A stretch of DNA of 64,000 bases from Rickettsiaceae bacterium (GCA_045106605.1 JBGCEV010000002.1:25996-89995), one strand, 5' to 3'; positions 7,088-49,423 are shown, counted from the stretch's first letter. Program-made: numbers and translations. Notes: generated by a model not told the origin, from the letters alone.

Positions 7088-8998
7088 TTATTTTTTACCC
7101 TTTTTTTGCTCTAGCACTGACTTTGGCTTTTTATCTTTACTTGGCTTTGGCTTCACTATTTTGCTTTTTTTAGCAGGGAATTCTAGTTCCTCCGTTGCAT
7201 CAAGTTCTTTACCAAGCAATAAATTTTTAATCTGCTTACCTGAAAGAGTTTCATGCTCAATTAAAGCTTTAGCTAAAGTGTGTAGCTGGTCAATATGCGT
7301 TGTTAACGTCTCTTTTGCACGAAGATATCCCTCGTCAATTATACGTCTTACTTCATTATCTATCATTTCTGCAGTGTGTTGTGATTTAGATTTATTTCTA
7401 GATCCAGAAGAATACATATCTTCATTATTATCACCATAAAATACTGGTCCTACCACATCACTAAGCCCCCACTCCGTAACCATTGCGTGAGCCATTCTTG
7501 TCGCCATCTTGATATCTGAAGAGGCGCCAGAAGTAACTTTTTCTGTACCAAATATAATTTCTTCTGCTACTCTGCCGGCCATTGCCACTGCAATATCTGC
7601 TTTCATTTTCTCAAGAGCCATAGATAATCTATCATTTTCTGGCAATCTCATAACCATGCCAAGGGCTCTACCACGTGGAATAATCGTAGCTTTATGGATT
7701 GGATCAGATGCAGGGCAATGTAGCCCTACTAGGGCGTGACCTCCTTCATGATAGGCTGTTAATTTTTTTTCATCATCTGACATAGCGAGCGACTTTCTTT
7801 CTACACCCATTAACACCTTATCTTTAGCATCTTCCATATCATCCATATCGACAAGCTTTTTGTTTCTTCGTGCAGCAAGCAAGGCCGCTTCATTCACTAA
7901 ATTATACAACTCTGCTCCTGAAAAACCTGGTGTACCACGAGCAATAATTTTTGGATCAACTGTATCGGAATATTTAACCTTTTTTAGATGTACTTTTAAA
8001 ATCTGTTCTCTTCCTAACAAATCAGGGTGAGAAACAGTAATCTGACGATCAAATCTGCCTGGGCGTAGTAGCGCTGGGTCCAGAACATCAGGTCTATTAG
8101 TAGCAGCTATGATAACGACACCTTCGTTAGCCTCAAAACCATCCATTTCAACTAACATTTGATTCAATGTCTGTTCACGCTCATCATTGCCACCACCCAT
8201 ACCAATACCTCGGTGACGACCAACAGCATCAATTTCATCAATGAAAATTATACAAGGAGCATTTCTTTTACCTTGTTCAAACATGTCACGTACTCTACTA
8301 GCACCAACCCCGACAAACATTTCAACAAAATCAGAACCTGATATACTAAAAAATGGTACATTAGCCTCACCTGCAATAGATTTTGCCAACAATGTTTTAC
8401 CAGTACCTGGAGGTCCTATTAACAAGCACCCTTTAGGGATTTGACCACCTAGTTTTTGAAACTTTCCAGGGTTTCTTAAAAAATCAACAATCTCAGATAA
8501 TTCTGCCTTAGCCTCATCAATACCTGCAACATCGGCAAAGGTTATTTTAGGCCCTTTATCAGATGTAAGTTTAGCTTTTGATTTGCCAAAACCCATACCT
8601 TTACTACCACCTTGCATTTGACGCATAAAGAACACCCATACCCCAATGAGTAGCAACATAGGGAACCATGATATAAATATGCTAAACAATGAATGCATTT
8701 TAGTATCTGGAGGTATTACATCAATATGCACTTCATTTGCATTTAATTTATCAACCAACCCAGGATACTCTGTCGTATAGGTTGAAAAATGAGTACCATT
8801 GGCCAACACACCCTGTATATATCTACCTTGAATTTTTACTGAGTGCACTTGCCTTGATTCAACTTTATTTAAAAAGTCAGAAAAAGCTAAACTATCAGAT
8901 TTCCCTGATAATCCATTACCTTGTAACATGTTAAAAGTAACGACCATTAGGACAAAAATACCTATCCAAATCAATATTTGTTTATGCTGCTTGTTCAT
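7088..8998 (-). CDS. ftsH: ATP-dependent zinc metalloprotease FtsH
   Basis: Two N-terminal TM helices, Walker A GPPGTGKT, Walker [10 protein letters not shown], and zinc site HEGGHA. The start is placed at MNKQHKQ (8998) rather than 9037, which would overlap tilS. Confidence 0.95.
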
Positions 8999-9008
8999 TA
9001 TTAAGTTC

Positions 9009-10331
9009 CTATAAGAAATGGGTAAAACGCGATACAAACTTTGGTTTAAATACTACCTGTAAAGCTTTATTAAATTCCATGTTATCATAATAAGATATAT
9101 GGGGTATGGCTATTATTTTTTCAAGTTTTTTGACAATAGGCAGTGTAAATAAAATTGCTTTGTGATGCTGGGGGCTAAATTTTTGAAGCCTTTGTAGGTT
9201 GATATCACCCTTTAAATCTTGGTATTCTGCTAATGTTAGTGTGCTTATATAATATGATGGCTTGATATCTACCAATTGCAGGGCAAATCTATTATCCCAA
9301 ATTAAGTTATTATAATTATTATATTGTATATTATTTATTTGCGACCTTTCTCTAAACACTAACAATTTACTATTATGTTCTCTTAATACACATCCATGAA
9401 GAGTATGTTTAACGCAAATTGTGTTCTCATGGATTATTTCTAGGATTTTTTTTATACTCCTAAAGCGCGGCAATGTAATAGCACCACTAACTACAGTTAA
9501 AATATAGCTTAGAATCTGAATCTGAATGTCTACTATTACTGATCTAAAATTGCTTAGGTCAATGACAGCACAGCCATAATTATTAATACATACCGACTCA
9601 GCCATGGTACGTATAAGTAACTGATTAAGATCATTAGCTGTTTGATTAACGGCCTGCATCTCACTAAATAATTGTTCCCTTTCTAACCTAGAAAACGTTG
9701 CTATTTGTTGTCGCACTCGATTACGTTCATATATATCAAGTTTATTAGATTGGTCATCCAACCAACTAATATTATGCTTTGTTAAATAAGTGATTAAATC
9801 AACTTTATGAAATTTTATTAAGGGCCTTAATATTTGGATATTATTATAAAAAAAACTTGAGGAATAGCTTAAACCAAACACACCACTTTTCTTTCTTTTC
9901 CTCATCAGATATGTTTCTAGCATATCATCTATATGATGCCCCGTAAGCATTGTATCAATTGCAAGTTGATGACATTTTTGGGTCATCAATTGGTATCTAG
10001 CTTCTCTTGCTCTTGCTTGCAAAGCAACTTTACTGGCGTTATTATTCCATTCAAATTCATAGAATTCTAGACCCAAGATCTGGCATTGCTGTTGTACTAA
10101 TGCTATTTCTTGTTTTGATTCCAAACGAAGATTATGGTTTACACTGAACACAACCAGTTTAACCCCTCTTTGTTTCGCCCAATATAATGACAGATTTAAC
10201 AAGGCGACTGAATCACTACCACCAGAAACAGCCAATGCAACCGACTTAGTAGCGGAATCTACTAGGTAATCCATATAATTACAAAAAGCATCTTGTATAT
10301 TTTTACTTAAGAACACATGCTTATATTGCAT
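9009..10331 (-). CDS. tilS: tRNA(Ile)-lysidine synthase
   Basis: PP-loop ALAVSGGSDSVALL and HHIDD motif; conserved position immediately upstream of ftsH. Confidence 0.9.
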   Translation of the reverse strand: MQYKHVFLSKNIQDAFCNYMDYLVDSATKSVALAVSGGSDSVALLNLSLYWAKQRGVKLVVFSVNHNLRLESKQEIALVQQQCQILGLEFYEFEWNNNASKVALQARAREARYQLMTQKCHQLAIDTMLTGHHIDDMLETYLMRKRKKSGVFGLSYSSSFFYNNIQILRPLIKFHKVDLITYLTKHNISWLDDQSNKLDIYERNRVRQQIATFSRLEREQLFSEMQAVNQTANDLNQLLIRTMAESVCINNYGCAVIDLSNFRSVIVDIQIQILSYILTVVSGAITLPRFRSIKKILEIIHENTICVKHTLHGCVLREHNSKLLVFRERSQINNIQYNNYNNLIWDNRFALQLVDIKPSYYISTLTLAEYQDLKGDINLQRLQKFSPQHHKAILFTLPIVKKLEKIIAIPHISYYDNMEFNKALQVVFKPKFVSRFTHFL

Positions 10332-10337
10332 AACAAA

Positions 10338-11921
10338 TTATTTAAATACACCTTTAGAATATAGACTTTCAATAGTTTTATCAAGTTTGAGCGCCAATTC
10401 TTGTTTAATCTGTTCTATATCCTCAATTTTCTCATTATTTTTGATATAATCAAGATTACCAGCTACCGCATCACGCAGTAAGTTCTCTAGTATTTGTTCC
10501 TTTGTATTTTGTCCATTCATATATTTAAGTGCAGATTTCCTAAAACTATTGATGAAAATTGCTTGATGATTCGGACTTGTAATCCAATCCTTGTTTGTAT
10601 TATGTACTTGGTGAAATATCAACTGATCTACGACCGGTTTAGTAAGGTGAATTTTGTTTTTGTCTCTCTCATACACATTAATTTCCATAAAACCTTTCAT
10701 AATAAGACTCATCGCATTATCAAGTAATTCAGCCTCGATTGTTGTTTTCTCGTCAGTTGGAAAAATTTTATTAGCCAATGCAACAATTCTGTCAAATTTA
10801 ATTGGATATCCACGATGTGCAGATAATACATAAAATACAGCTTTTAAATACGGTGAAGAAATAGACACTGACTGATTGTTACTTTGCAAAAAATAAAAAT
10901 CTATTGCTTTCTCGCTTATCAAATCTACATATTCAAAAGCTTTTTCTGGTACAATATCCAGGGAGAGAGCAAATTGTCGTATCTGATCAGTATTCAGATT
11001 CCTGTTCAAACTTACGTCCCTATGACAAAGCAACGTACTTCTGAATTTTCGATTATTAATAAAATCCAAATATTGTGCTGTGCCTACAATATCATTTTCA
11101 GTATTTAAGTTTTTTTCTACTGATGCTTGCATACTATCTAAATACATAGTAGATAATGATACATCCGACAAATATTGCAAATTATGCTTTCTTGCTTTAT
11201 CAAGAAACTCGCTAAAATAAAATTGATAATTATTTTCTTCTAAATGATCATGCCTGAGATAATGATCACTGCGTTCTGCCAGTATTTTGGCTTCCTGAAG
11301 AAGTATTTTACTGTAAGGGGTATCTGTTTTTGCGAGACTATCTTGAACAAAACTCAATAACTCTCTGGCCTGCCTTACTTTATCCTGAGAATTAGAAAAA
11401 CCCTTAGTATGATACAACATCATATCACGAATAGTTTTTGATATGTTCCATCCAGGCAAGGTATTGTAACTAATATATACAACACCGTTTCTGGCTAAAT
11501 TCTTGTTAGATATTTCTAAAATTTTCTCTTGGATATTTTCTGGCACCCACGAAAAAACACCATGGCATATTATATAATCAAATTCACCAAAAGATTTATC
11601 AACATCTATAATCGAACAATGTCTAAGTTCAATATTTGTAATACCCAAAGCATTAATATCGCTTTGTCCTCTTGCAATCTGTTTTGCAGATAAATCAATA
11701 CCAAGATACCTTCCTTGTGGATAATGAATTGCATGAGGTATTAAATTGCCACCTGCTGCACAACCTAGTTCAAGTACTCTCGCATCCTCAATTGGCGGAG
11801 GTCTCATACCAAAGAACGTAGCAAGTGTGGCTAAATTTAAAGGTGACGCCAACGGATAAGGATAACTTTCATAAGGCATCTCATCATATGAATTGTTTTT
11901 TAAACTATCCCTCATGAGCAC
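10338..11921 (-). CDS. SAM-dependent methyltransferase with C-terminal regulatory domain, rickettsial PKMT-like protein lysine methyltransferase
   Basis: The N-terminus YDEMPYESYPYPLASP...VLELGCAAGGNLIPHA...FDYIICHGVFSWVP...YISYNTLPGWN closely resembles the PKMT1/PKMT2 family as I remember it. Length is 527 aa. Confidence 0.8.
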   Translation of the reverse strand: MLMRDSLKNNSYDEMPYESYPYPLASPLNLATLATFFGMRPPPIEDARVLELGCAAGGNLIPHAIHYPQGRYLGIDLSAKQIARGQSDINALGITNIELRHCSIIDVDKSFGEFDYIICHGVFSWVPENIQEKILEISNKNLARNGVVYISYNTLPGWNISKTIRDMMLYHTKGFSNSQDKVRQARELLSFVQDSLAKTDTPYSKILLQEAKILAERSDHYLRHDHLEENNYQFYFSEFLDKARKHNLQYLSDVSLSTMYLDSMQASVEKNLNTENDIVGTAQYLDFINNRKFRSTLLCHRDVSLNRNLNTDQIRQFALSLDIVPEKAFEYVDLISEKAIDFYFLQSNNQSVSISSPYLKAVFYVLSAHRGYPIKFDRIVALANKIFPTDEKTTIEAELLDNAMSLIMKGFMEINVYERDKNKIHLTKPVVDQLIFHQVHNTNKDWITSPNHQAIFINSFRKSALKYMNGQNTKEQILENLLRDAVAGNLDYIKNNEKIEDIEQIKQELALKLDKTIESLYSKGVFK

Positions 11922-11950
11922 TTATTTTGACATTATTTAATAACAATGCA

Positions 11951-12706
11951 TTAAGCAGGAATTTTAAATTTAACTCCTATCATGAAATCAGCAACACCAA
12001 TCGTTTTTTTGATAGGAGACTGAGATACAAAGACTCCTGCGTCGTTTTTTGTATCGTATTTAAATTTTATGCCATTTACAACCATCAATTTTGCTCCCAG
12101 GTCTATACTTACATTTTCGGTAAAATCATAGGTAATACCACCACCAAATTGCAAGACAGGACAATTATTTTTGCTTTTTGTCGCTCTAAAAAATGGATAA
12201 TCATTCCCCATCCCTACCCCTGCAAGCGCATCTGTAGTAGTGAGTTTGGGTTTAATTGATACTTTAGCAATACCACCACCAGCCGTAAGATACGGCTTAA
12301 TACCTGCATATTGTTGAGGTATTTCATAAATTAAGTTCAATGTATAAATATTTGCTGAAACCTTAGTTCTATCTGATGTTTCTGGTATAGACACTCCTGG
12401 CATAACAGCAGTTTCTGGTAAGGTATATTTAAATATATATTTAGGTTGGTGCGCTGCAGAAAGTTCGATCATCATACCTGGATAAAAACTATAACCCACA
12501 CTTATTCCAAACTGATTAGATTGTTTTATTCTAAATCTAGAATTGGTTTCATCGTGTGAAAAACTTTTTATCACTGGCTCCGATATACCAAATTTTGTGC
12601 TAACATATACATACTCATCCTCAGCATTATCTGCATAAATAATACTTGGCCAAATGATAAAAAAATTAGCAACTAAAATAATAAATGAGCTTTTTATTTT
12701 TTTCAT
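11951..12706 (-). CDS. Small outer-membrane beta-barrel protein (OmpA-like/OMP_b-brl type) with signal peptide
   Basis: Signal peptide MKKIKSSFIILVANFFIIWPSIIYA, then alternating hydrophobic beta-strand pattern with Gly/aromatic-rich strands. 251 aa. Confidence 0.6.
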   Translation of the reverse strand: MKKIKSSFIILVANFFIIWPSIIYADNAEDEYVYVSTKFGISEPVIKSFSHDETNSRFRIKQSNQFGISVGYSFYPGMMIELSAAHQPKYIFKYTLPETAVMPGVSIPETSDRTKVSANIYTLNLIYEIPQQYAGIKPYLTAGGGIAKVSIKPKLTTTDALAGVGMGNDYPFFRATKSKNNCPVLQFGGGITYDFTENVSIDLGAKLMVVNGIKFKYDTKNDAGVFVSQSPIKKTIGVADFMIGVKFKIPA

Positions 12707-38184: not shown

Positions 38185-39363
38185 TTACTTAATTATTTTT
38201 GATACCACTCCAGCACCTACAGTTCTACCACCTTCTCTGATCGCAAAACGCAAACCTTCATCCATAGCTACAGGAGAAATCATTTTCACAATAATACTAG
38301 TATTATCACCTGGCATAACCATCTCCTTACCCGCTGGCAACTCAATCTCACCAGTTACATCAGTTGTTCTAAAATAGAACTGAGGACGATAATTTTTAAA
38401 GAAAGGAGTATGTCTACCACCTTCTTCTTTTTTCAACACATAAATTTCTGCTTCGAATTCAGTATGCGGAGTAATAGAACCTGGCTTAGCTAGCACTTGA
38501 CCTCTGACCACATCTTCTCTTTTAGTACCACGCAAAAGCACACCAACATTGTCACCAGCCTCACCTGAATCAAGTAATTTCTTGAACATTTCAACACCAG
38601 TACATGTAGTTTTTACCGTATCTTTGATACCAACTATTTCTATTTCTTCACCAACCTTAACTACACCTTGCTCAATTCTACCAGTCACAACAGTACCACG
38701 GCCAGAAATTGAGAACACATCCTCAATCGGCATCAAGAATGGCTTATCAAGATCACGAGTTGGCTGAGGTATATACTCATCAACAGCTGTCATTAGCTCA
38801 TCGATACACTTAGTGTCACCACCTTCCAAAACTTTAAGAGCTGAACCTTTAATAACAGGGATATCGTCACCAGGGAAATCATAAGCTGAAAGCAATTCTC
38901 TTACTTCCATCTCTACTAAATCTAGCAATTCTGGATCATCTACTTGATCTACTTTATTTAAAAACACTACTATTGCTGGCACACCAACCTGACGTGCAAG
39001 CAAAATATGCTCTCTTGTTTGTGGCATTGGACCATCAGCTGCTGACACAACTAAAATAGCTCCATCCATCTGCGCCGCACCAGTAATCATGTTTTTTACA
39101 TAGTCAGCATGCCCGGGGCAATCAACGTGAGCATAGTGTCTACCATCCGTTTCGTATTCAACATGGGCAGTAGAAATTGTTATACCTCTTTCTTTCTCCT
39201 CAGGAGCACCATCGATTTCATCGTACTTTCTTGCTTTGGCCTGACCTTTTTTTGCTAGCACACTAGTAATTGCCGCAGTAAGCGAGGTTTTACCATGATC
39301 AACGTGACCAATAGTACCAATGTTGCAATGCGGCTTATTCCGCTCAAACTTTTCTTTTGCCAT
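38185..39363 (-). CDS. tuf: Elongation factor Tu
   Basis: [16 protein letters not shown] and NKVD GTPase motifs. 392 aa. Confidence 0.98.
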
Positions 39364-39448
39364 AAACTCTATCTCCTAACCAATATAAAATTATCAACGA
39401 TTAATAAAAAAAAACACTCTCATCATTTCACCACAAATACAAACTCAA

Positions 39449-39522
39449 TGGAGCGGATGATGGGAATCGAACCCACACTACCAGCTTGGAAGGCTGGGGC
39501 TCTACCGTTGAGCTACACCCGC
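39449..39522 (-). tRNA. tRNA-Gly (anticodon UCC)
   Basis: The reverse complement folds as a cloverleaf: acceptor gcgggtg/catccgc, anticodon stem ccagc/gctgg with loop cttccaa, T-arm gtggg-ttcgatt-cccat. CCA is encoded. 74 nt. Confidence 0.93.
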
Positions 39523-39548
39523 AAATGCCCAAAACCACCTATCCAAGG

Positions 39549-39634
39549 TGGTGGAGGGAGAAGGATTCGAACCTTCGAACGCATACGCGGGCAGATTTAC
39601 AGTCTGCTGCCATTGACCACTCGGCCACCCCTCC
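39549..39634 (-). tRNA. tRNA-Tyr (anticodon GUA)
   Basis: Reverse complement: acceptor ggagggg/tccctcc, anticodon stem gcaga/tctgc with loop ctgtaaa, long variable arm, T-arm gaagg-ttcgaat-ccttc. CCA is encoded. 86 nt. Confidence 0.93.
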
Positions 39635-39822
39635 TTGTCCTTTAGACTTAAAGCAAAATAGACCATTTAACTAACAAACGCAAGTAGTAATTAACACTAA
39701 ACCTTACTATATTAAAATATCCATATCTACTGGGGCAACAACTATAATGTTATCTGTTGTATTTTTGTATAATAAATAGTATTTTCTGTCAAGAACATTT
39801 TATGAATCAAGCAGCATGATAG

Positions 39823-40563
39823 ATGAATTTAAAACACAAGGTAAGTAACCACGTAAAAGCTCAATACTACATATTTGGTACTCATGCAGTTATCGCAGCA
39901 GCTAACAACCCGAGGCGCAAAGTTATTAACATATTTTGCTTATCAAAACAGCTCCACACCCTCAAATCATTTATTAAAAACTATGAATTAATAGTAGTAG
40001 ATGCAAATTTTATTATTAATAATATAGGTCAAGATAAAATTCACCAGGGTGTTATAGCGTTAGTAGATACAGTATTTAAGAATGGTATTAACGAGTTAGA
40101 CTTTACTCCAAGTAGAGACAGAGTAGCAATACTTGATCAAATCGTAGACCCACAAAACGTAGGAGCTATTATCAGAAGTGCTGCCGCTTTTGGCTTTAAT
40201 AAAATAATAGTTGCAAAAGATAATGCACCAGACGAAAATTCCACTATTGCCAAAGCCGCCTGTGGATGCCTAGAATTAGTACAAATTACAAAGGTAGTTA
40301 ATATTAACAAAACAATTCTTGATCTTAAAAATAGAGGATTTTGGATTGTAGGTCTTGATACCAATGGGCAAGAAAATCTAGAACCAGTTAAAGATATAGA
40401 AAAAATTGCTGTAATCATCGGCTCAGAACACAAAGGTATGCGTCAATTAACTCGCCAATCTTGCGATTTTTTAATAAAGATACCTATCTCACATCAAGTA
40501 GAAAGCTTAAATGCCTCAAATGCGGCGAGTATTATTTTCCATTCCTTACATAACCTCAACTAA
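39823..40563 (+). CDS. SpoU/TrmH-family RNA 2'-O-methyltransferase (RlmB-like)
   Basis: IVDPQNVGAIIRSAAAFG, VIIGSEHKGM and ESLNASNAASI motifs. Confidence 0.85.
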   Translation: MNLKHKVSNHVKAQYYIFGTHAVIAAANNPRRKVINIFCLSKQLHTLKSFIKNYELIVVDANFIINNIGQDKIHQGVIALVDTVFKNGINELDFTPSRDRVAILDQIVDPQNVGAIIRSAAAFGFNKIIVAKDNAPDENSTIAKAACGCLELVQITKVVNINKTILDLKNRGFWIVGLDTNGQENLEPVKDIEKIAVIIGSEHKGMRQLTRQSCDFLIKIPISHQVESLNASNAASIIFHSLHNLN

Positions 40564-40580: not shown

Positions 40581-43244
40581 TTAAATAATAATTGCCGCAA
40601 CTACTTCTTTAGTTTTTTGCTCTAGATTATCTAATTGTTTAACGTCATTACCTCCAGCTTGAGCAAGTGTAGCTTGCCCTCCTCCACTACCACCAATAAA
40701 TTTAGCAAGCGTCTGGGCTATGTTGCCAGCATGATATTTATCTGATATTAGTTTAGACGCAGCAACACATATAGATAATTTCTCGTTGGCTTGATAAGCA
40801 ATTACCAATACTAAATCGTCATGTTTTTTAGCTATCCTTTCTAATGATAGTCGAACAACTTTTGGATTAAAATCACCTGCAATTTGTTTGTATACTAAGC
40901 GAGCTGCGTTGATTTTTGGCGCGGCATCTATAATAGATTCAGTTAACGAAATTAGCTTATCGATCTGCCATTGCTCAATTTTCTTTTCTAAATTTTTATT
41001 CGACAAAAGAAGATGATCTATTTTAGGTAATAACTCTAATTTAGTACTTTTGAATTTAAATAAGATTTGTTCAAGCAATTCATCATTTTCGTTAATCTGC
41101 TGTAAGGCGAACTTGCCACAGACCGCTTCTATTCTTCTAATACCAGCCGCAATGGCACTTTCACTAACAATTCTAAATACACCGATTTCCCCTGTTCTCT
41201 TGACATGAGTGCCACCACATAACTCAAAGGAATAAGGTTTATTATTTACTACTGCTTCACCAAAAGAGACTACCCTTACTTCATCATCATACTTTTCACC
41301 AAATAAAGCCATGGCACCAGAAGCTACAGCCTGGTCAAACGGCATGAGATCCGTACATACTTTAAAATTATCGATAATAATTTGATTCACCTTATTTTCC
41401 ACTGCTCTGATTTCTGACTTAGTTAAAGCGGTAGGCTGACTAATGTCAAAACGCAATTTATCATTAGCAACCAAAGAACCTTTTTGAGTAACATGCTTAC
41501 CCAATAAATCTTGCAATACTGAATGTAAAATATGTGTGGCTGTATGGTGAATTTTCAAATGCTGGCGATACGATGAATCAATAGATAATTTGATTTCATC
41601 TCCTACCTTGATAGACCCCTCTTTCAACTCGCATACATGTCCTATTATCTGCCCCAAGAATTTTAGGGTGTTGACTACTTGAATTGTACAGTTTGCAGAA
41701 CTAATTGTACCAATATCCCCCATTTGACCACCCGATTCACCATAAAAAGGAGTTTGATTAGTAATCATAGTAAATTGACCACCTTTTGCATTCCAATTGG
41801 TGAATTTTTTACCGTTTTGAATTAATGCCTGTACGCATCCTTCTGCTTGATCTAGAACATAACCTAGGAACTCAGTCGCCCCAAACTCAGATAAATGGTC
41901 AAACCAAATAGCATCTGTTTTCAACTCTCCAGAACCGGTCCACGCCTTGCGCGCCCTTTCTTTTTGCAGGTTCATTTGCTGTTGAAAGCCTTGCGAATCA
42001 ACTGTAACATTTCGCTTTTTTAAAATATCTTCGGTTAAATCTATTGGAAACCCATAGGTATCATATAATTTAAACGCTACTGCTCCAGGTAAAATCCCTC
42101 CTTTATCAATTAACTGAGACTCTTCTTGCAGCAATTTCAACCCTCTGTCTAAGGTGAGTTGAAACCTTTCTTCTTCTTGCTTAAGAATACTTGCGACAAA
42201 CTCCTTGGTCCTTACTAGCTCTCGATAAGTATCACCAAATAAATCTATTAATTTTGGCAATAATTTATACATTATAGGCTCTTTAGCTCCGAGCTGATGA
42301 ATATGACGCATGGCCCTACGCATAATGCGTCTTAATACATATCCCCTGCCTTCATTAGCAGGCATAACACCATCAGCAATTAGAAATGCACTTGATCTCA
42401 AATGATCAGCGATAATTCGATACGAAAACAAAGCTTCGCCCTTTGCTGCTACTTTTAGAATTGATTCACTATAATGAATAATTTCTTGAAACAGATCTAT
42501 GTCATAATTATCGTGGACTCCTTGTATTACTGCCGATATTCTCTCCAGCCCCATGCCGGTATCAACTGATTGTTTTGGTAGTTTAATACGGTTATTCTTA
42601 TCTATTTGTTCATATTGCATAAACACTAGATTCCAGATCTCGATAAAACGATCACCGTCCTGCTCTGGCGTCCCTGGTAATCCCCCGGCTATATGTTCAC
42701 CATGGTCATAAAATATCTCGGTAGAAGGACCACAAGGACCAGTATCCCCCATAGACCAGAAATTATCGCTGTTATTAATTCTGATGATGCGGCTATCATT
42801 TAAACCCGCTATTTTTTTCCAATAAGATACGGCCTCTTCATCGTTATGATAAACAGTGACGTATAGTTTTTCTATCGGCAAGCCAAAATCTTTGGTTAAC
42901 AAGTTCCAAGCATAATATATCGCTTCTTCTTTAAAATAATCACCAAACGAGAAATTTCCTAGCATTTCAAAGAAAGTATGATGCCTAGCAGTATATCCAA
43001 CATTATCTAGGTCGTTGTGTTTACCCCCAGCACGCACTGCTTTTTGACAACTTGTCGCCCTAGTATAATCCCTCTGCTCAACACCGGTGAACACATCTTT
43101 AAATTGCACCATGCCTGAATTAACAAACATTAGACTAGGGTCATTATGAGGGATCAATGAACTAGACTGCACATGTTGATGCCCTGTGTTTTTAAAAAAG
43201 TCAATAAATGTATTTCTTACTTGTTTTGTTGTGAGTTTAATCAT
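40581..43244 (-). CDS. alaS: Alanine--tRNA ligase
   Basis: 887 aa. Class II core (FFKNTGHQHVQSSSLIP; FEMLGNFSFGDYFK), editing-domain zinc motif HTATHIL...CGGTH, and C-terminal GGSGGGQATLAQAGG. Confidence 0.97.
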   Translation of the reverse strand: MIKLTTKQVRNTFIDFFKNTGHQHVQSSSLIPHNDPSLMFVNSGMVQFKDVFTGVEQRDYTRATSCQKAVRAGGKHNDLDNVGYTARHHTFFEMLGNFSFGDYFKEEAIYYAWNLLTKDFGLPIEKLYVTVYHNDEEAVSYWKKIAGLNDSRIIRINNSDNFWSMGDTGPCGPSTEIFYDHGEHIAGGLPGTPEQDGDRFIEIWNLVFMQYEQIDKNNRIKLPKQSVDTGMGLERISAVIQGVHDNYDIDLFQEIIHYSESILKVAAKGEALFSYRIIADHLRSSAFLIADGVMPANEGRGYVLRRIMRRAMRHIHQLGAKEPIMYKLLPKLIDLFGDTYRELVRTKEFVASILKQEEERFQLTLDRGLKLLQEESQLIDKGGILPGAVAFKLYDTYGFPIDLTEDILKKRNVTVDSQGFQQQMNLQKERARKAWTGSGELKTDAIWFDHLSEFGATEFLGYVLDQAEGCVQALIQNGKKFTNWNAKGGQFTMITNQTPFYGESGGQMGDIGTISSANCTIQVVNTLKFLGQIIGHVCELKEGSIKVGDEIKLSIDSSYRQHLKIHHTATHILHSVLQDLLGKHVTQKGSLVANDKLRFDISQPTALTKSEIRAVENKVNQIIIDNFKVCTDLMPFDQAVASGAMALFGEKYDDEVRVVSFGEAVVNNKPYSFELCGGTHVKRTGEIGVFRIVSESAIAAGIRRIEAVCGKFALQQINENDELLEQILFKFKSTKLELLPKIDHLLLSNKNLEKKIEQWQIDKLISLTESIIDAAPKINAARLVYKQIAGDFNPKVVRLSLERIAKKHDDLVLVIAYQANEKLSICVAASKLISDKYHAGNIAQTLAKFIGGSGGGQATLAQAGGNDVKQLDNLEQKTKEVVAAIII

Positions 43245-43433
43245 TTTGCTGCTAAGATGTTTTTTTTGGCGCCTAATGGCGGTAATACTAGTGACTTTAT
43301 TGCTAAATTACAACGTTAATTTAACAAGATCCTTCTTAATACTGTAGTATTGTTGAGTTGACCTTAATTGAGCTTTAGAGTTGATAGTGGATATTTGTTG
43401 TAGAAATTACTTAATTTGAATAACATATAATTT

Positions 43434-44954
43434 ATGAGGCATAAAAAAGGGTTCCCAACATACATTTCCGGGCTTCTTGGTTATAAGGGAAATATTATCA
43501 TATTGCTCGGTAGACAAGGAATAAAGTTAGTAGCACTAACTAGGTCCGCGCCTCCAGATATTGAATTTATTGACTATGCTACAAACAACTATTTGCAAGG
43601 ATGTTTCAAATTTATCGCTAAGCATCCCTATTATCAAATTACATTGCTTCTTGATCATAATGAATGCTATTTAAAGCACGAAACTTTTCCCATATTAAAC
43701 TCAATAGTAAGTCACGACCTCATTAATAGATTTATTGCCGAAAATTATAAATTAGAAGATATTGTTGGTTATAATATTCATGAAATTAACAACCAAACAC
43801 GAGAAGAATTGAATGTTTGTCTTGCTGCTTCACCAATGACTAATGTAATTAATGAATTAGTAAAATACGTTATTAATAATTCATTAAGATACGGAGGTGT
43901 ATATTTTTTATCCCTCGAATTTGTACCAATAATTGACCATTTACTTAAAATAACTAACAATACACATTATCAAAAACATTTACAAATCCTTACCACAATT
44001 ACCGAATCATCTGGCATTAAATGTATTGTCAAATATAAGAAGAATATTATAAACGAAGAAACAGTTAACTACCCGCCAAATAAATCTGATTTATACATCC
44101 AGGGATGTATAGAACAAACAGTTCGTGACCAACTATTATTTTGCAAACAATTCATCAAGACTTCTAACGTAAAAGTGTGCATAATATTCCTTCTGGATAC
44201 ATCCATACTTCACCTAGTTAGTAAACTTGATTTCGATTCCCATAAAATCATTGCCATCCCCCCTCAATATCCTGAAATTGAAAATCGTTTTTTTGATACT
44301 AATTTTATTGCGTTATTTGATCAATATCGCACCTATCTGGCGTCTAATAAAGCTCTTAGAGTTATTAGGCTACTAAGTTTTATCAATCATCGATTATTTC
44401 CACCTTTAGTAGGGGTATTTGCAATCATAATTATTATGCTGGCTGGTGTACAATATTACAGCCTACGATTAGAATCTAATATTAGTAAGTTACTGACCCA
44501 GGACTACAGATTATTTGAAGAATATAGACACATGAAGGCGCATAATTTAGAATTTGGTAATATTGGTGATTTAGTAGATTTATATAATACAGAGCAAATT
44601 ATTAATAAGCAACCAGCAATGCCGCAAACAGATATAAAAGCTTTAATTAATTTGCAAACGAATAATTTTAAAATTAGACAACTAACTTGGCAAATTATCA
44701 ATCCCGTATTCTATAATCTGCCAAAAAGCAATTTAGAAATATCGGTGAAAGCTCATTATACTGACAAAATAGATACTAAGGATAAAGGGCAAAAATGTAT
44801 CAATGAATACTTAAATAATGTACGTGCTATTTTTCCAAATTATAAAATTAAGCATAAAAAAACCCATGATATATACGAATATGCAAATAGAACCATTATT
44901 CCTACTGATTTTGTCATTGAGGGCAGAATAGGAGAAACAATGCATGCAAAATAA
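43434..44954 (+). CDS. Hypothetical bitopic membrane protein (about 320-aa cytoplasmic domain, one TM at residues ~321-343, about 160-aa C-terminal domain)
   Basis: A 506-codon open frame in about 30% G+C DNA cannot be chance. Single hydrophobic helix LFPPLVGVFAIIIIMLAGVQYYSL. Its stop overlaps the next gene's start. No family recognised. Confidence 0.7.
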   Translation: MRHKKGFPTYISGLLGYKGNIIILLGRQGIKLVALTRSAPPDIEFIDYATNNYLQGCFKFIAKHPYYQITLLLDHNECYLKHETFPILNSIVSHDLINRFIAENYKLEDIVGYNIHEINNQTREELNVCLAASPMTNVINELVKYVINNSLRYGGVYFLSLEFVPIIDHLLKITNNTHYQKHLQILTTITESSGIKCIVKYKKNIINEETVNYPPNKSDLYIQGCIEQTVRDQLLFCKQFIKTSNVKVCIIFLLDTSILHLVSKLDFDSHKIIAIPPQYPEIENRFFDTNFIALFDQYRTYLASNKALRVIRLLSFINHRLFPPLVGVFAIIIIMLAGVQYYSLRLESNISKLLTQDYRLFEEYRHMKAHNLEFGNIGDLVDLYNTEQIINKQPAMPQTDIKALINLQTNNFKIRQLTWQIINPVFYNLPKSNLEISVKAHYTDKIDTKDKGQKCINEYLNNVRAIFPNYKIKHKKTHDIYEYANRTIIPTDFVIEGRIGETMHAK

Positions 44955-45579
44955 ATCAGTTATCCGTCTTAAAAACATTATTTTCTTAAAGGCTTTGTTA
45001 TTAGCCGTACTGAGTGTGATTATTATTGTGGTTATTGTCATCTTAAAAAATAAGATCACAGCAAATTTATTAGTAAAAAGAACGCTAACAACAGATATAA
45101 ACAATAACAGATCACAATTACAATCTATCCAAAAATTTAAACAAAATCTAAAAAACACAAATTACGATTACAAAAAGTTGTTAAACCATAACCATTTTTC
45201 TTGCAACAAAACAGCAGAACAATTGATCAGTGCTATAAAACAACTAGATACTAAATATAAGTTATTTGCACCAGCACAGATCACAAAGATAAGCGATGTA
45301 ACAATTAGCAATTCTTTAATCAAAAACCATCATGTTAATATCAGATATGATAAAATAATATTGAAATTTGGCATATCTGATTATTCCAGTCTGTTGAATT
45401 TATCAGATGAGTTATATAAAGCAATGCCTTGTGGATCATTTGTTTTGAGTTATCATATTAAAAAAGTAGATTTTTTAACCCCTGAAATAATAGCAACTCT
45501 CAATACGTATAAAGCTCCCGATACTATTCAAGTTAAGATAATAATCTTCCTACAAAACATCATTTATAATGAGCAGTAA
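44944..45579 (+). CDS. Hypothetical bitopic membrane protein (N-terminal TM, coiled-coil-like segment, C-terminal alpha/beta-like domain)
   Basis: 211-aa ORF. TM at residues ~11-34 (NIIFLKALLLAVLSVIIIVVIVIL). The ATG overlaps the upstream stop by 11 nt. Confidence 0.65.
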   Translation: MQNKSVIRLKNIIFLKALLLAVLSVIIIVVIVILKNKITANLLVKRTLTTDINNNRSQLQSIQKFKQNLKNTNYDYKKLLNHNHFSCNKTAEQLISAIKQLDTKYKLFAPAQITKISDVTISNSLIKNHHVNIRYDKIILKFGISDYSSLLNLSDELYKAMPCGSFVLSYHIKKVDFLTPEIIATLNTYKAPDTIQVKIIIFLQNIIYNEQ

Positions 45580-45581
45580 TT

Positions 45582-46580
45582 ATGACAAATAATCTGAATA
45601 TATTGGATGCAACAGATCTTGCACCTTTTACCTTGTGCCTGACTCAATATTTAGATGATAACATGGAAAAGGGCTTAATATCATCTATTGCTACTTTAAT
45701 AGCCATAGATTACAAAAACAGATTAAAATCCAATTATGCTATCGCAGATTATGCTGAGTTATGCGCTACAAGGATCAAACAACATTTAGGTAACAAAGTA
45801 GTAATGGACGAAGATTTTTCATCAGCTATGACCCTGTTTGTTGTAGCTATCACACCAGAAAAAAATAAAAGTGATGATCAAAACAACCTAAAAGAGGAAC
45901 ATCAGGATATATTGATAGATAGCATTATCGCATTACAATTTGCTGATTTAAATCCAAAAGAGCAACAAAATATCAGATTATTACTAAGAGATTTATTGAA
46001 AGACCCTATAGGTAAAGCACTGATGAACTCTATCAGTTCTAATCCTAAGCTGTTTTATTCAGTTGTATTTTCTGCTATCAAAAGCAAACAAAAACAGCAT
46101 GACGTCCTGTTGTCAGTTACCACACATTTAAAACAAATTTTTCATCATTCTAATAAAGCTGACCAATCTGTTATTAATACACAAGGATTATTAACAAAAC
46201 TCGTAGTTACTGGTGGTATTTTAGCCGCGTCATCTCTAGGAGCATTTATTAGTGGTATTTCATTACCAGCGTTAGCTGTACCCGCAATGATTGTAGCTGT
46301 TACAGTCAGTTCCCAATTAGGCCAAAATATTGGTTACAAAGTAGCCAGTAATATGGCTAAAGTGAAAAATGGAGTTAATATACTTGCTAATCTACAAAAA
46401 TCTATGAGCATTCAATCCACAAGCATTGCATTACAAAACCAACTAGATAGTGCGCAGCAAGGTAACCTACACAAACAGGAATTGCCAACCTTAACCCCAG
46501 AGCAGGACGTTGAGAGCAACCATGTTGGTAAAAATTATAAATTTGCTGAACATCAGGAGAAAAACTCCAGACGTAGATAA
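45582..46580 (+). CDS. Hypothetical protein with a bilobed hydrophobic hairpin (residues ~203-243)
   Basis: 332-aa ORF starting 2 nt after the upstream stop. LLTKLVVTGGILAASSLGAFISGISLPALAVPAMIVAVTVSS is the only hydrophobic region. Polar Q/N/S-rich C-terminus. Confidence 0.65.
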   Translation: MTNNLNILDATDLAPFTLCLTQYLDDNMEKGLISSIATLIAIDYKNRLKSNYAIADYAELCATRIKQHLGNKVVMDEDFSSAMTLFVVAITPEKNKSDDQNNLKEEHQDILIDSIIALQFADLNPKEQQNIRLLLRDLLKDPIGKALMNSISSNPKLFYSVVFSAIKSKQKQHDVLLSVTTHLKQIFHHSNKADQSVINTQGLLTKLVVTGGILAASSLGAFISGISLPALAVPAMIVAVTVSSQLGQNIGYKVASNMAKVKNGVNILANLQKSMSIQSTSIALQNQLDSAQQGNLHKQELPTLTPEQDVESNHVGKNYKFAEHQEKNSRRR

Positions 46581-46620: not shown

Positions 46621-47412
46621 TTATTTCTCTGCAAAGGCTGGCTTACCAGGTAGTTTTGAATTTATATAAGTTAATAAACCAGCTGGTAGCAAACAACATA
46701 ATTTCATAAAAATATATAATATCCAAGGAAACGTAACTAAGTGTTTATTACATGCTATACCAGCAGCAACTTTTTCGGCTGCCTTTTCAGCGCTTATAAT
46801 AAATGGCATAGGAAATTGATTAACTTTAGTCATGGGTGTTTGAATGTAACCAGGAATAATTGTTGTAACTGTAATATTGTAACGTTGTAAATATCCACGC
46901 AAGGCATCGCTGAATAAGCGCATCGATCCTTTACTTGCGGAATAAGATGGAGCGCAGGATAGACCTATAATACCCGCCATAGAACTAACAATAGCTATAT
47001 TGCCCTTTTGTTGTTTGATCATATAGGGAATAATCGGCATTATTGTATTTAAAACACCATAAATATTTGTATCAAAAATCTTTTGCACCTGCTCTAGAGT
47101 CTCTGGTCCTTGCAAAGTACCAGCAGATACTCCCGCACAAGCTATTACTATATCTATATTTTGTTCGCGTGCTATTGTTTCTAAACATCGCTTCATAGAG
47201 TTAGCATCTGTAACATCCTCTGAGAAAGTTTGAATATCGCTACCATTTGCTTTACATGATTCAGATACTTCATGCAGCCTTGCATGTGATCTACCAAATA
47301 AAAATAGCCTATGATGCTGTTTGGAGTAATGAACAGCAAGTGCTGCACCTAGCCCACTTGAAGCACCTGTAATAATTATTGTTTTTTGAGTATTGATCAT
47401 TATACTTAGCAC
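46621..47412 (-). CDS. Short-chain dehydrogenase/reductase (SDR) family oxidoreductase
   Basis: Cofactor motif ITGASSGLGAALA and catalytic YSASK. Confidence 0.88.
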   Translation of the reverse strand: MLSIMINTQKTIIITGASSGLGAALAVHYSKQHHRLFLFGRSHARLHEVSESCKANGSDIQTFSEDVTDANSMKRCLETIAREQNIDIVIACAGVSAGTLQGPETLEQVQKIFDTNIYGVLNTIMPIIPYMIKQQKGNIAIVSSMAGIIGLSCAPSYSASKGSMRLFSDALRGYLQRYNITVTTIIPGYIQTPMTKVNQFPMPFIISAEKAAEKVAAGIACNKHLVTFPWILYIFMKLCCLLPAGLLTYINSKLPGKPAFAEK

Positions 47413-47448: not shown

Positions 47449-48021
47449 ATGAACACTAATGCAATGATAATTATTTTATCTGCGCCCTCTGGAGGTGGTA
47501 AATCATCTATAGCACAACAATTATTAGCACTTGATACCAATTTAGTGTTATCAATTTCAGCAACTACTAGAAAAGCAAGAACTGGTGAGAAAGATGGTGA
47601 GCATTATTTTTTTTGCACAAGAAAACAATTTAATGAACTGGAATTGCTAGAACAGGCAGAAATTTATGGCAATTTATATGGCACGCCGAAGAGTTATGTG
47701 GATCAAAAATTGGCATCAGGTCATGACGTATTATTTGATATTGATGCCCAAGGTGCTTATCAGATAATGCAAAAAGCACACGCTAAAGTAGTTAGTATTT
47801 TCATTTTACCTCCAAGTATTGACGAGCTTGAGGCAAGACTAAAAAAAAGAGGACAGGATAATCAGGAATCTATAAAATTAAGGCTACAAGCTGCTAAAGA
47901 GGAAATAACCAACGCTGATAATTATCACTATGCATTGATCAATGATGATTTAGCTCTCACGGTCAAAGAAATAAAAAATATTATTGATTTGGAACGGAGG
48001 CAAAGTAATAAGCATGCGTAA
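47449..48021 (+). CDS. gmk: Guanylate kinase
   Basis: P-loop SAPSGGGKSS; ISATTRKARTGEKDGEHYFF; 190 aa. Confidence 0.93.
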   Translation: MNTNAMIIILSAPSGGGKSSIAQQLLALDTNLVLSISATTRKARTGEKDGEHYFFCTRKQFNELELLEQAEIYGNLYGTPKSYVDQKLASGHDVLFDIDAQGAYQIMQKAHAKVVSIFILPPSIDELEARLKKRGQDNQESIKLRLQAAKEEITNADNYHYALINDDLALTVKEIKNIIDLERRQSNKHA

Positions 48022-49264
48022 AAATTCTAAAAAGAAAATTACAGGGGCATTTTTTGGTACTATAGTTGAATATTACGATTATAGTTTATATGGATTTTCA
48101 GCTGGTATATTAGCTGAAAAATTTTTCCCAGGTACAGATAAAGTTTCTAGCCTCATGTATGTTTTTGCAATTTACGCTCTTTCCTATTTGGCCAAGCCCT
48201 TTGGTGCAATCTTTTTCAGTAAAATAGGAGATAAATATGGTAGAATTATCTCTCTTAAATTAACGATATTCGGAATTGCTATACCAACTGTGATCATTGG
48301 TCTATTGCCGGAAAACCAACATATTGGCTCAACAATTACACTTATTTTAGTATTCTGCAGATTTTTTCAAGGCTTTTTTACTGCTGGGGAATACGATGGA
48401 GCTGCAATCTATGTGATAGAGCATATGGACCAGAAGCATAATTACACCGCATCTGCTATTACTCGGGGCGCAGGGGTTGCCGGCCTATTACTTGGTATAG
48501 CATCAACAAATTTCTTTAATTCTTCTATATTTCCTGAATGGTGCTGGCGAATACCATTTTTATTATCCTTGCCATTGGTTGGTATCACTCTATATTATCG
48601 CAAATTCCTAGAAGAGACACCAGATTTCGTCAAATCACAAAATAACACAGTCCCATTTTCAAATATCATTATTTTTATCAAGACACAATGGAAGCTTCTT
48701 TTAATCGTTACTATGCTCGCTGGCGGGTTTGGTGTGACTTATCAAATAGCAATTATTTTTATGAAGCACTATTTATTACTTGTCATACCAGGGGCTAGTA
48801 ATATTATGAGTTCTTTTTCTGTAATCATCGTGCTCGTTTTTGGTATTACCATGCCTATTGCTGGGGTGCTAGCAGATCGCTTTGGTAGAGAGCTGATTTT
48901 GAATACGAGCCTACTACTCGTTTTGATTAGTTGCGTTGTATTAATCGCAGCCATCAAAATGCAATTATTAAATCTAGCTCTCATTGGCTGCTTATTGCTT
49001 GCTATTGCTGTTTCGCCATTTAATGCATTGTCACACGCTGTACTCATAAGGGCATTTAAGGTAAATGAACGTTATCGTGGTATAGGTCTCGGCCATACTA
49101 CTGGTTCAGTATTGATGTCAGGTACTGCAAGTTATATTTGCTTATTGTTTATAAAAAAATATAATATTATATTTTTTCCGATTATCTACATCGCATTATT
49201 TGCAATTATCGCCTACCTAATGATTAGAATATTAGATAAGAATAAAGATACACACGAAATTTAG
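48014..49264 (+). CDS. MFS metabolite:H+ symporter (ProP-like proline/betaine transporter family)
   Basis: 12-TM protein with the N-terminal FFGTIVEYYDYSLYGF motif typical of ProP-type MHS transporters. The ATG at 48014 is preferred over the track start at 47984. Confidence 0.85.
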   Translation: MRKNSKKKITGAFFGTIVEYYDYSLYGFSAGILAEKFFPGTDKVSSLMYVFAIYALSYLAKPFGAIFFSKIGDKYGRIISLKLTIFGIAIPTVIIGLLPENQHIGSTITLILVFCRFFQGFFTAGEYDGAAIYVIEHMDQKHNYTASAITRGAGVAGLLLGIASTNFFNSSIFPEWCWRIPFLLSLPLVGITLYYRKFLEETPDFVKSQNNTVPFSNIIIFIKTQWKLLLIVTMLAGGFGVTYQIAIIFMKHYLLLVIPGASNIMSSFSVIIVLVFGITMPIAGVLADRFGRELILNTSLLLVLISCVVLIAAIKMQLLNLALIGCLLLAIAVSPFNALSHAVLIRAFKVNERYRGIGLGHTTGSVLMSGTASYICLLFIKKYNIIFFPIIYIALFAIIAYLMIRILDKNKDTHEI

Positions 49265-49347: not shown

Positions 49348-49423
49348 GGGCGATTAGCTCAGTTGGTAGAGCATCTCGTTTACACCGAGACGGTCGGCAG
49401 TTCGAGTCTGTCATCGCCCACCA
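49348..49423 (+). tRNA. tRNA-Val (anticodon UAC)
   Basis: Acceptor gggcgat/atcgccc, D-arm agctcagttggtagagc, anticodon stem tctcg/cgaga with loop tttacac, T-arm ggcag-ttcgagt-ctgtc. CCA is encoded. 76 nt. Confidence 0.95.

Follow-up and report, generated by a model that had tools for sequence, protein, structure and literature searches.

The window, a 64,000-nt stretch of DNA from a Rickettsiaceae bacterium, contains a trio of coupled open reading frames (ORFs), termed g1, g2 and g3 from 5′ to 3′. We propose that g1 and g2 are, with high probability, very divergent descendants of the inner-membrane alignment/assembly-platform pair of a type IVa pilus (T4aP)-like machine, with the fused design of GspL/GspM. 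The predicted structure of g1 has an actin-like fold of the PilM/FtsA/GspL type. Moreover, in less-reduced Alphaproteobacteria a conserved gene cluster that encodes PilB and PilC together with PilT/PilU contains direct homologues of g1 and g2, which leads us to regard the two genes as the platform pair of an ancestral T4aP-like machine.

Structure of g1

The final AlphaFold2 model of g1, calculated from a 65-sequence alignment (A2) drawn from an exhaustive homologue search, has a predicted local distance difference test score (pLDDT) of 90.9 and a predicted template modelling score (pTM) of 0.71. An earlier run with 11 close sequences reached a pLDDT of 53.6, and its fold search gave no significant match. 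In the final model, the cytoplasmic region consists of two β-rich lobes and helices, followed by a single continuous helix (residues 306-370) that comprises the transmembrane segment and a coiled-coil stalk. The predicted periplasmic domain is composed of a helix (398-405), two strands (412-422 and 433-444), a second helix (449-466) and two further strands (471-475 and 486-498). A design of two α-β-β units is that described for PilN, PilO, GspM and the periplasmic domain of GspL.

A Foldseek search of the PDB with the g1 model gave 40 matches with E ≤ 1e-3. Ranks 1-8 are all Pseudomonas aeruginosa PilM, with E-values from 3.6e-11 (PDB 5eoy) to 6.5e-10 and target-normalized TM-scores of 0.43-0.51; the entries 5eoy, 5eox and 5eou give E-values of 3.6e-11 to 2e-10. 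They are followed by the actin-like protein BT_3980, FtsA (3wt0, E = 2.7e-9; 3wqt, 4a2a and 7q6i), Myxococcus xanthus PilM (3jc8_Ma) and Thermus thermophilus PilM (2ych). Further matches are the cytoplasmic domains of GspL (4pht_Y, E = 1.5e-7), EpsL (1yf5, E = 8.4e-7; 1w97) and PulL (5tkw), which together span E-values of 1.5e-7 to 2.2e-6 and TM-scores on the target of 0.45-0.54. The matches to PilM, FtsA and GspL/PulL/EpsL all have a Foldseek probability of 1.0. The modelled cytoplasmic domain shows the two-lobed ASKHA (acetate and sugar kinases/Hsc70/actin) fold with the extra subdomain of the FtsA/PilM type. A preliminary description of this DNA had proposed, from topology, an architecture like that of PilM-PilN/PilO or GspL/GspM. 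The AlphaFold2 and Foldseek analysis, which revealed an actin-like PilM/FtsA/GspL fold and not an unrelated one, supports this proposal, as does, independently, the genomic context of distant homologues.

The column composition of A2 revealed neither the phosphate-1 motif DxG nor the phosphate-2 motif DxGGG across the 65 g1-family members. At the phosphate-1 site, a run of five hydrophobic residues leads into G-[DE]-x-G in this family; two positions ahead of G26, the alignment has L, S, F, T or I with no conserved Asp, and the hairpin at residues 183-196 contains no DxGG. As the nucleotide motifs are missing and a transmembrane helix fuses the domain to a periplasmic one, g1 is built like GspL and not like free PilM.

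Distant homologues in T4aP-like gene clusters

Distant members of the family keep the three-gene layout. In L020, a locus from outside the Rickettsiaceae, alaS is divergent to genes of 543, 218 and 318 aa that are followed by an ATP-binding cassette (ABC) ATPase gene, with a comparable arrangement in L021 and L022. When the L020 protein P0097 served as the query, the search retrieved 281 relatives on contigs of up to 613 kb, belonging to Candidatus (Ca.) Arcanobacter lacustris and to metagenome-assembled genomes (MAGs) labelled 'Rickettsiales' and 'Alphaproteobacteria bacterium'. The UniRef name of one of them, from Ca. Arcanobacter lacustris, is 'Competence protein A', a PilM-type name.

The clusters of L026, L028 and L029 have the order MshEN+T2SSE ATPase (590-694 aa), T2SSF protein (400 aa), g1-like protein (570-636 aa), g2-like protein (215-227 aa), third gene (252-368 aa) and ABC ATPase (246-248 aa), with two T2SSE ATPases (370-397 aa) and a tetratricopeptide-repeat (TPR) protein on the opposite strand. 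L027 carries a partial cluster, in which the T2SSF gene is directly upstream of the g1-like gene and the MshEN-T2SSE and ABC genes are a few kb away. NCBIfam models assigned the L026 neighbours to a GspE/PilB-type ATPase with an MshE-type cyclic di-GMP (c-di-GMP)-binding motif and a GspF/PilC-type protein, and the two small ATPases to the 'PilT/PilU family type 4a pilus ATPase', with scores of 424 and 472 bits that exceed the family cut-off (319). Because these PilT/PilU retraction ATPases are present, clusters of this type are assigned to a T4aP and not to a type II secretion system (T2SS).

A profile built from Rickettsiaceae g1 proteins only (A1) matched the g1-like cluster proteins P0217 (E = 8e-16), P0242 (5e-14), P0219 (2e-12) and P0206 (1e-9), the E-values being computed for a database size set to 1.84e9 sequences and the matches spanning positions ~22-490 of 516. 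Likewise, the Rickettsiaceae g2 profile matched, over 191 columns, the gene in second place in the clusters from outside Rickettsiaceae (hhalign 96.3%, E = 2e-9), with cross-controls below 0.4%.

The third gene of the clusters outside Rickettsiaceae is homologous among loci and encodes a signal peptide, a linker rich in Pro and a β-rich domain of ~170 aa, from which we infer a PilP-like layout; it has no match in Pfam or NCBIfam. Right after it, these clusters constantly carry a DrrA/GldA-like ABC-2-type ATPase (244-248 aa, 41-71% identical) with no adjacent permease gene. Neither the window nor any of the 19 Rickettsiaceae loci described below contains this ATPase. The gene upstream of pilB in L028 (3094-6474) and L029 (3290-6751) encodes PF27156 'RP005_N', a domain named after a Rickettsia prowazekii ORF, which hints that these less-reduced genomes are Rickettsiales relatives. 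In addition, L021 encodes on the minus strand (10533-12386), a few kb from its trio, a family 2 glycosyltransferase fused to a c-di-GMP-binding MshEN domain.

g2 and the PilO/GspM position

The g2 protein matches the Pfam family RP854 (PF17460) with an E-value of 9.4e-12 and 45.6 bits (cut-off 25), as do 14 of 17 g2-type proteins in a Pfam scan. The gene lies directly downstream of, and is coupled to, a PilN/GspL-type gene, a position that it shares with its counterparts in the pilB-pilC-linked clusters. We assigned it to the PilO/GspM position because it is homologous to the second gene of these clusters. An analysis of hydrophobic periodicity, a crude approach calibrated on the C-terminal domain of g1, where it recovered the modelled elements, gave a transmembrane segment, a polar stalk and the order α-β-β-α-β-(α)-β, so that g2 plausibly also has the PilO/GspM fold.

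Several observations weigh against the assignment of g1-g2 to a pilus platform. The structural matches of g1 have moderate TM-scores (0.43-0.56 on the target) and an RMSD of 6-8 Å, and PilN, PilO and GspM chains are absent from the top 50 Foldseek matches of either g1 model, in a whole-protein search that the N-terminal domain dominates. At the sequence level, g1 has no match to the Pfam and NCBIfam models of PilM, PilN, PilO, GspL and GspM, nor to T2SSL or GspL_C; a Pfam scan of the 65 g1-family members gave no recurrent match, and PDB searches with g1, as a single sequence or a profile, returned transmembrane and coiled-coil noise only. Similarly, g2 is unmatched by the PilO and GspM (T2SSM) models of Pfam and NCBIfam and by PDB structures in a profile search, a Pfam scan of 17 g2-family members gave no recurrent match either, and its fold assignment draws on the periodicity analysis and gene position. 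A PilN/PilO-like paralogy between the C-terminal half of g1 and g2 was considered and found unsupported (hhalign 7%). Profiles of g1, its N- and C-terminal parts (g1N and g1C) and g2 gave no hhalign signal against Escherichia coli HofM/N/O/P and GspC/F/L/M/O (HofM, 0.0-0.1%); these negatives are uninformative, because g1N is silent against HofM and GspL as well, where Foldseek is clear. Finally, the link to type IV pili (T4P) is one of gene neighbourhood: secretin and pilin genes were not seen within ±10 kb even in L026-L029, from which pseudopilins are likewise absent, and pilB and pilC are not adjacent in the non-Rickettsiaceae loci L020, L021, L025 and L030.

Conservation and selection

A word-index search gave 13 g1 homologues, all hypothetical proteins of Rickettsiales/Rickettsiaceae MAGs, and the same search with A2 returned these 13 proteins and no more. 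An exhaustive profile search revealed 379 representatives with E ≤ 1e-3 (246 with E ≤ 1e-10), nearly all of ~500-550 aa and aligned end to end; sequence-cluster look-ups for the family yielded almost no functional names. A scan of reference genomes gave 19 loci, all from Rickettsiaceae (Ca. Megaera/Megaira, Ca. Tisiphia, one 'Rickettsia sp.' MAG and unnamed MAGs). The order of a divergent alaS followed by g1-g2-g3 is present in 17 of the 19, the overlapping or abutting junctions of the trio being conserved too, and an 18th locus (L019) retains g1-g2. In L016, from the 'Rickettsia sp.' MAG (7926-12196), g1 is intact and followed by gyrB on the opposite strand, with g2 and g3 undetectable in the locus; this locus departs from the shared gene order, or may have been rearranged or affected by its assembly. 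The divergence of alaS and g1 was also found outside Rickettsiaceae, in L020 and L025.

Full-length ORFs and the overlapping start/stop geometry persist across lineages at only 24-40% protein identity. The ratios of nonsynonymous to synonymous substitution rates (dN/dS), calculated by the Nei-Gojobori method for five locus pairs, are 0.05-0.30 for g1, 0.06-0.22 for g2 and 0.12-0.24 for g3, and 0.03-0.07 for alaS. Purifying selection acts on all three genes of the trio, which are not in decay. Together, the 379 g1 representatives, the synteny in 17 of 19 loci and the dN/dS of 0.05-0.30 demonstrate that the trio consists of real genes and not of chance ORFs. Given this selection, the trio should still work as a membrane complex.

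Orphan status of the trio

The absence of pilin, secretin and secretion ATPase genes near the trio, noticed early on, holds for the 64-kb window and the 19 related loci (338,843 nt in all). In this set, tblastn searches with E. coli GspC-O and HofQ detected no homologue, nor did searches with alphaproteobacterial PilB, PilC, PilT, third-gene, ABC and TPR proteins, for which the distant loci gave strong positive controls. A single GspE match, in L013, was rejected as a CcmA-type ABC ATPase aligned at the Walker A motif only. A scan for prepilin motifs and a search for an A24_N peptidase found nothing in the window.

In three Megaera-type loci, the gene right after g3 (L001:11167-11901, L002:11205-11954 and L009:3061-3810) encodes a prepilin-peptidase N-terminal zinc-finger domain (PF06750, E = 1e-19), and the order g1-g2-g3-peptidase-like gene echoes gspL-gspM-gspO of E. 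coli. An A24 catalytic domain was not detected in this gene; in an alignment with GspO of E. coli, a Tyr occupies the place of the first catalytic Asp, and the GxGDxK motif is missing. Because of these losses, it is probably a degenerate prepilin peptidase. The window has no counterpart of it.

Genome surveys of Megaira, including the genomes behind L003, L008 and L014, reported only the Sec, Tat and type IV secretion systems (T4SS). A T4P has been inferred in the Rickettsiales ancestor, with repeated loss in the crown families (PMC9352585; PMC10847448), and T4P components are present in some early-diverging or aquatic Rickettsiaceae (PMC10847448). The trio is an orphan at its locus, and presumably in its genome as well.

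An alternative is that the trio is no orphan: a complete T4P- or T2SS-like machine would be scattered elsewhere in the genome, with g1-g2 as its ordinary platform and RP853, the Pfam family of g3, as an accessory. The T4P components of the early-diverging or aquatic Rickettsiaceae and the peptidase N-domain gene after g3 favour this explanation, as does the fact that the window covers 64 kb of the source genome. We nevertheless consider it rather unlikely, since no homologue of PilB, PilC, PilT, secretin or pilin was found in the window and the 19 Rickettsiaceae loci against strong positive controls, the surveys of the L003, L008 and L014 genomes list only Sec, Tat and T4SS, and neither the first catalytic Asp nor GxGDxK is present in the peptidase-like gene next to the trio. 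Moreover, the RP854 and RP853 Pfam families were founded on genes of R. prowazekii, the genome of which is not known to encode a T4P or a T2SS.

g3, the lineage-specific third gene

The g3 protein matches RP853 (PF17542) with an E-value of 5.4e-29 and 101.8 bits (cut-off 25). Its conserved part comprises a ~195-aa N-terminal region, predicted to be helical from alignment A4, and a hydrophobic hairpin, the two lobes of which are separated and followed by conserved prolines, whereas the basic, polar tail at the C-terminus shows little conservation. Inspection of the sequence revealed neither a signal peptide nor an N-terminal hydrophobic segment, and a PDB profile search with the g3 alignment returned transmembrane and coiled-coil noise only. 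The g3 of L008 (10103-11290) has an insertion of ~58 residues rich in G, E and K. The g3 ORF of L005 (10103-10699) stops after 198 aa, upstream of the hairpin, which may reflect a truncation or a frameshift.

An identity of g3 as PilP or GspC was rejected: it has no N-terminal hydrophobic segment that could act as the signal peptide or lipobox of PilP or as the transmembrane anchor of GspC, its prediction is mostly helical with an internal hairpin, and it is unrelated to the gene of PilP-like layout (hhalign 0.4% between RP853 and the third gene of the non-Rickettsiaceae clusters). As the third genes of the other lineages are homologous to each other yet unrelated to RP853, profile comparison identifies RP853 as a replacement, specific to Rickettsiaceae, for another third gene. 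Its close translational coupling with g2 suggests that g3 is a stoichiometric inner-membrane partner, the N-terminal domain of which would face the cytoplasm like that of g1.

The preliminary description had likened the hydrophobic stretch of g3 to the hairpin of chlamydial Inc proteins. The bilobed stretch of ~40 residues is indeed evident in the sequence, but no similarity to an Inc family was found, and the likeness is an analogy only. Taken literally, it would make g3 a secreted Inc-like effector that inserts its hairpin into the host membrane and is merely co-transcribed with g1-g2; the two-lobed stretch, the lack of an N-terminal signal peptide and the disordered polar tail would fit such an effector. 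This explanation is improbable, as Pfam and PDB profile searches gave no similarity to Inc or effector families, the coupling to g2 is conserved across Rickettsiaceae, and the most conserved parts are the N-terminal domain and the hairpin rather than the surface-exposed tail. In addition, Inc proteins are exported by a type III system, which Rickettsiaceae are not known to possess.

Two further explanations, one for g1 and one for the whole trio, are weaker still. An FtsA-like or other actin-fold divisome or envelope protein, sharing with PilM/GspL the fold only and unlinked to type IV filaments, would account for the significant FtsA matches (3wt0, E = 2.7e-9) and for the weak coiled-coil matches of single g1-family members to DivIC and FtsL_2; it is highly improbable, because PilM ranks on top in Foldseek, the combination of actin fold, transmembrane segment, two-α-β-β domain and small bitopic partner gene differs from the build of FtsA, and homologues occur inside pilB-pilC...pilT-pilU clusters at four independent loci. 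We likewise give very little credence to a non-functional relic of a lost pilus, open by chance and decaying: the AT content of the trio exceeds that of its flanks, its genes evolve 2-4 times faster than alaS, g3 is shortened in L005 and g1 has no adjacent g2 and g3 in L016, but every gene of the trio has a dN/dS within 0.05-0.30 in the five locus pairs, and full-length ORFs with their overlap geometry persist at 24-40% protein identity.

Organization of the locus

The coordinates of the trio and related features are collected in Table 1. The preliminary description was exact on the positions and lengths of the three ORFs (506, 211 and 332 aa) between alaS and a short-chain dehydrogenase/reductase (SDR) gene. 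It was also right on their coupling, for the start codon of g2 (ATG at 44944) overlaps the end of g1, stop codon included, by 11 nt, an AGGAG precedes it, and the TAA of g2 and the ATG of g3 are 2 nt apart. The described topologies are borne out as well: a transmembrane segment at ~321-343 and an alternating α/β C-terminal domain in g1, now seen in the AlphaFold2 model, an N-terminal transmembrane segment in g2 and a two-lobed stretch at 203-243 in g3. The statement that the genes belong to no named family stands for g1, which matches nothing in Pfam or NCBIfam, and falls for g2 (PF17460) and g3 (PF17542).

A terminator scan, which performed no better than on shuffled sequence, gave no terminator-like site on the plus strand within the trio, and a promoter scan gave one consensus-level promoter-like site (43321-43350), not above chance as judged on shuffled sequence. 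The GC content of the trio (43500-46000) is 0.27-0.33, compared to 0.35-0.40 for alaS and the downstream genes.

Farther away, the window contains three tRNA genes (39452-39522 and 39552-39634 on the minus strand, 49348-49420 on the plus strand), two of which lie between tuf (38185-39363, minus) and a TrmH/RlmB-like methyltransferase gene (39823-40563, plus). The mechanical ORFs at 39295-39674 overlap tRNA genes and are not genes. A mechanical ORF for a major facilitator superfamily (MFS) transporter (47984-49264, TTG start) overlaps the end of gmk by 38 nt; its true start is probably further downstream.

Table 1. Features of the trio, its surroundings and the distant clusters. Coordinates refer to the window unless a locus is named.
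Feature	Location	Strand	Basis or remark
alaS	40581-43244	-	upstream neighbour, divergent to g1
alaS/g1 divergent intergenic region, presumed promoter region of the trio	43245-43433	none	
g1, 506-aa bitopic inner-membrane protein, probable PilM-PilN-type (GspL-like) fusion	43434-44954	+	ORF, AlphaFold2, Foldseek, profile homology
g1 cytoplasmic actin-like (PilM/FtsA/GspL-type) domain, residues ~19-305	43488-44348	+	AlphaFold2, Foldseek
g1 transmembrane segment, residues ~321-343	44394-44462	+	sequence, AlphaFold2, hydrophobicity
g1 predicted periplasmic domain, residues ~398-498, α-β-β-α-β-β	44625-44927	+	AlphaFold2, pLDDT ~90
AGGAG, Shine-Dalgarno-like, for g2, inside the end of g1	44930-44934	+	9 nt before ATG
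g2, 211-aa bitopic membrane protein, RP854, putative PilO/GspM-position partner of g1	44944-45579	+	PF17460, hhalign
g3, 332-aa protein, RP853	45582-46580	+	PF17542
g3 two-lobed hydrophobic hairpin, residues 203-243 (~40)	46188-46310	+	P234 invariant, P244 nearly invariant
SDR gene	46621-47412	-	downstream neighbour of the trio
gmk	47449-48021		beyond the SDR gene
Third gene, putative PilP-like layout	L020:12379-13335, L021:6356-7318, L025:12252-13247, L026:12561-13319, L027:12500-13807		
ABC ATPase	L020:13364-14077, L021:7364-8095, L025:13249-13995, L026:13331-14077		
ABC ATPase, further loci	L028:13561-14301, L029:13224-13964, L030:13462-14196, L027:5112-5846		

Proposed model

We propose that a T4aP-like machine was present in the Rickettsiales ancestor and that g1-g2 were inherited from it. 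The single polypeptide of g1 would do the job of PilM and PilN together, as in GspL, and its actin-fold domain without nucleotide motifs would serve as a cytoplasmic docking module. The g2 protein would take the place of PilO/GspM, with an N-terminal transmembrane segment, a stalk and a periplasmic domain of the same type as that of g1. On the model of PilN/PilO and GspL/GspM, g1 and g2 may pair via their transmembrane, stalk and periplasmic parts, and oligomerize as an inner-membrane ring or cage. The less-reduced Alphaproteobacteria have the two genes between pilB/pilC and the gene of PilP-like layout, near pilT/pilU, and there the pair presumably docks the motor. In Rickettsiaceae, these pilus neighbours are gone, and the third gene has given way to RP853, with its putative cytoplasmic helical domain and membrane hairpin, coupled to g2. 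The trio might there serve a pilus remnant encoded elsewhere, or be re-used for another envelope function.

As a tentative extension of this model, less likely to be right than the model itself, Rickettsiaceae, including the Rickettsia pathogens devoid of all other type IV filament genes, might re-use the PilMN-fusion/PilO pair together with RP853 as a novel scaffold in the inner membrane that serves another machine. Such a re-used scaffold would parallel the re-use of PilMNO for the flagellar cage in Helicobacter pylori. A concrete candidate partner could be the Rvh type IV secretion system, the VirB11 of which is the sole remaining ATPase of the GspE/PilB superfamily.

Significance

The kind of system is known, but the family is not: neither Pfam nor NCBIfam has a model that covers g1, the annotation of RP854 and RP853 reads 'uncharacterized', and a literature search found no paper that links RP853, RP854, RP855 or the g1 family to pilus or secretion platforms, and none relevant on GspL/GspM in Rickettsia. 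The present analysis provides a structural and evolutionary identity for RP854, RP853 and an uncovered family of at least 379 representative proteins, all of which are conserved across Rickettsiaceae. The platform proteins of a T4aP-like system of Alphaproteobacteria escape the annotation of pili and secretion systems as it now stands; therefore, surveys that score T4P as present or absent in Rickettsiales are blind to this part. The retention of the trio under selection in reduced intracellular genomes, combined with the replacement of its third gene, is an evolutionary twist that raises the question of why obligate intracellular bacteria with minimal genomes keep the platform pair of an otherwise lost machine, and of what the pair now docks to. 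The RP853-855 orthologues in cultivable Rickettsia would be direct targets for localization, interaction and mutant studies.

Comparison with known systems

The trio shares several traits with the T2SS assembly platform, GspL-GspM of E. coli and EpsL/EpsM of Vibrio cholerae. In both, an actin-like domain without nucleotide motifs, one transmembrane segment and a periplasmic α/β domain reside in one polypeptide, and the gene of a small bitopic partner comes next with stop and start overlapping; the prepilin-peptidase-like gene after the trio in the Megaera-type loci corresponds in place to E. coli gspO. However, they share no detectable sequence similarity, and the cytoplasmic domain of g1 is longer (~305 aa against ~240). 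Moreover, the clusters of the relatives carry PilT/PilU. GspC, secretin and pseudopilin genes are not found nearby.

Compared to PilM-PilN-PilO, the alignment subcomplex of the T4aP (PDB 5eou, 2ych and 3jc8), PilM is the best structural match of the N-terminal domain of g1, the predicted layout of transmembrane segment, coiled coil and two α-β-β units corresponds to the PilN/PilO design, and homologues of g1 and g2 are likewise clustered with pilB, pilC, pilT and pilU. By contrast, g1 unites a PilM-like and a PilN-like part in one ORF that runs through the transmembrane segment, whereas a soluble PilM binds the N-terminal peptide of a separate PilN. The ATP-binding motifs of PilM are missing in g1, no PilP or PilQ follows downstream, and the sequence models are silent.

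In H. pylori, which has no other identifiable T4P genes, PilM, PilN and PilO are kept as part of the flagellar motor cage (PMC10823254). It thus resembles the present case in having a distant PilMNO-type operon without the rest of the pilus, and sets a precedent for re-use as a peripheral cage. They differ in that the H. pylori proteins are three separate ones with a known host machine, the flagellum, whereas the PilM- and PilN-like parts are fused here and the third gene, RP853, is unrelated.

In the MSHA pilus, MshI is a PilM-PilN-like fusion of ~480 aa, followed by the ~215-aa PilO-like MshJ, with MshK and the secretin MshL encoded downstream. The g1-g2 pair would resemble MshI/MshJ in this build, and the extension ATPase of the relatives has an MshE-type c-di-GMP-binding N-terminal domain. 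MshK and the MshL secretin were not seen here.

Finally, g2 and g3 are members of PF17460 and PF17542 above the curated cut-offs. Both families have been without functional annotation, whereas the present comparison places RP854 in a T4aP-like cluster, at the position of PilO/GspM.

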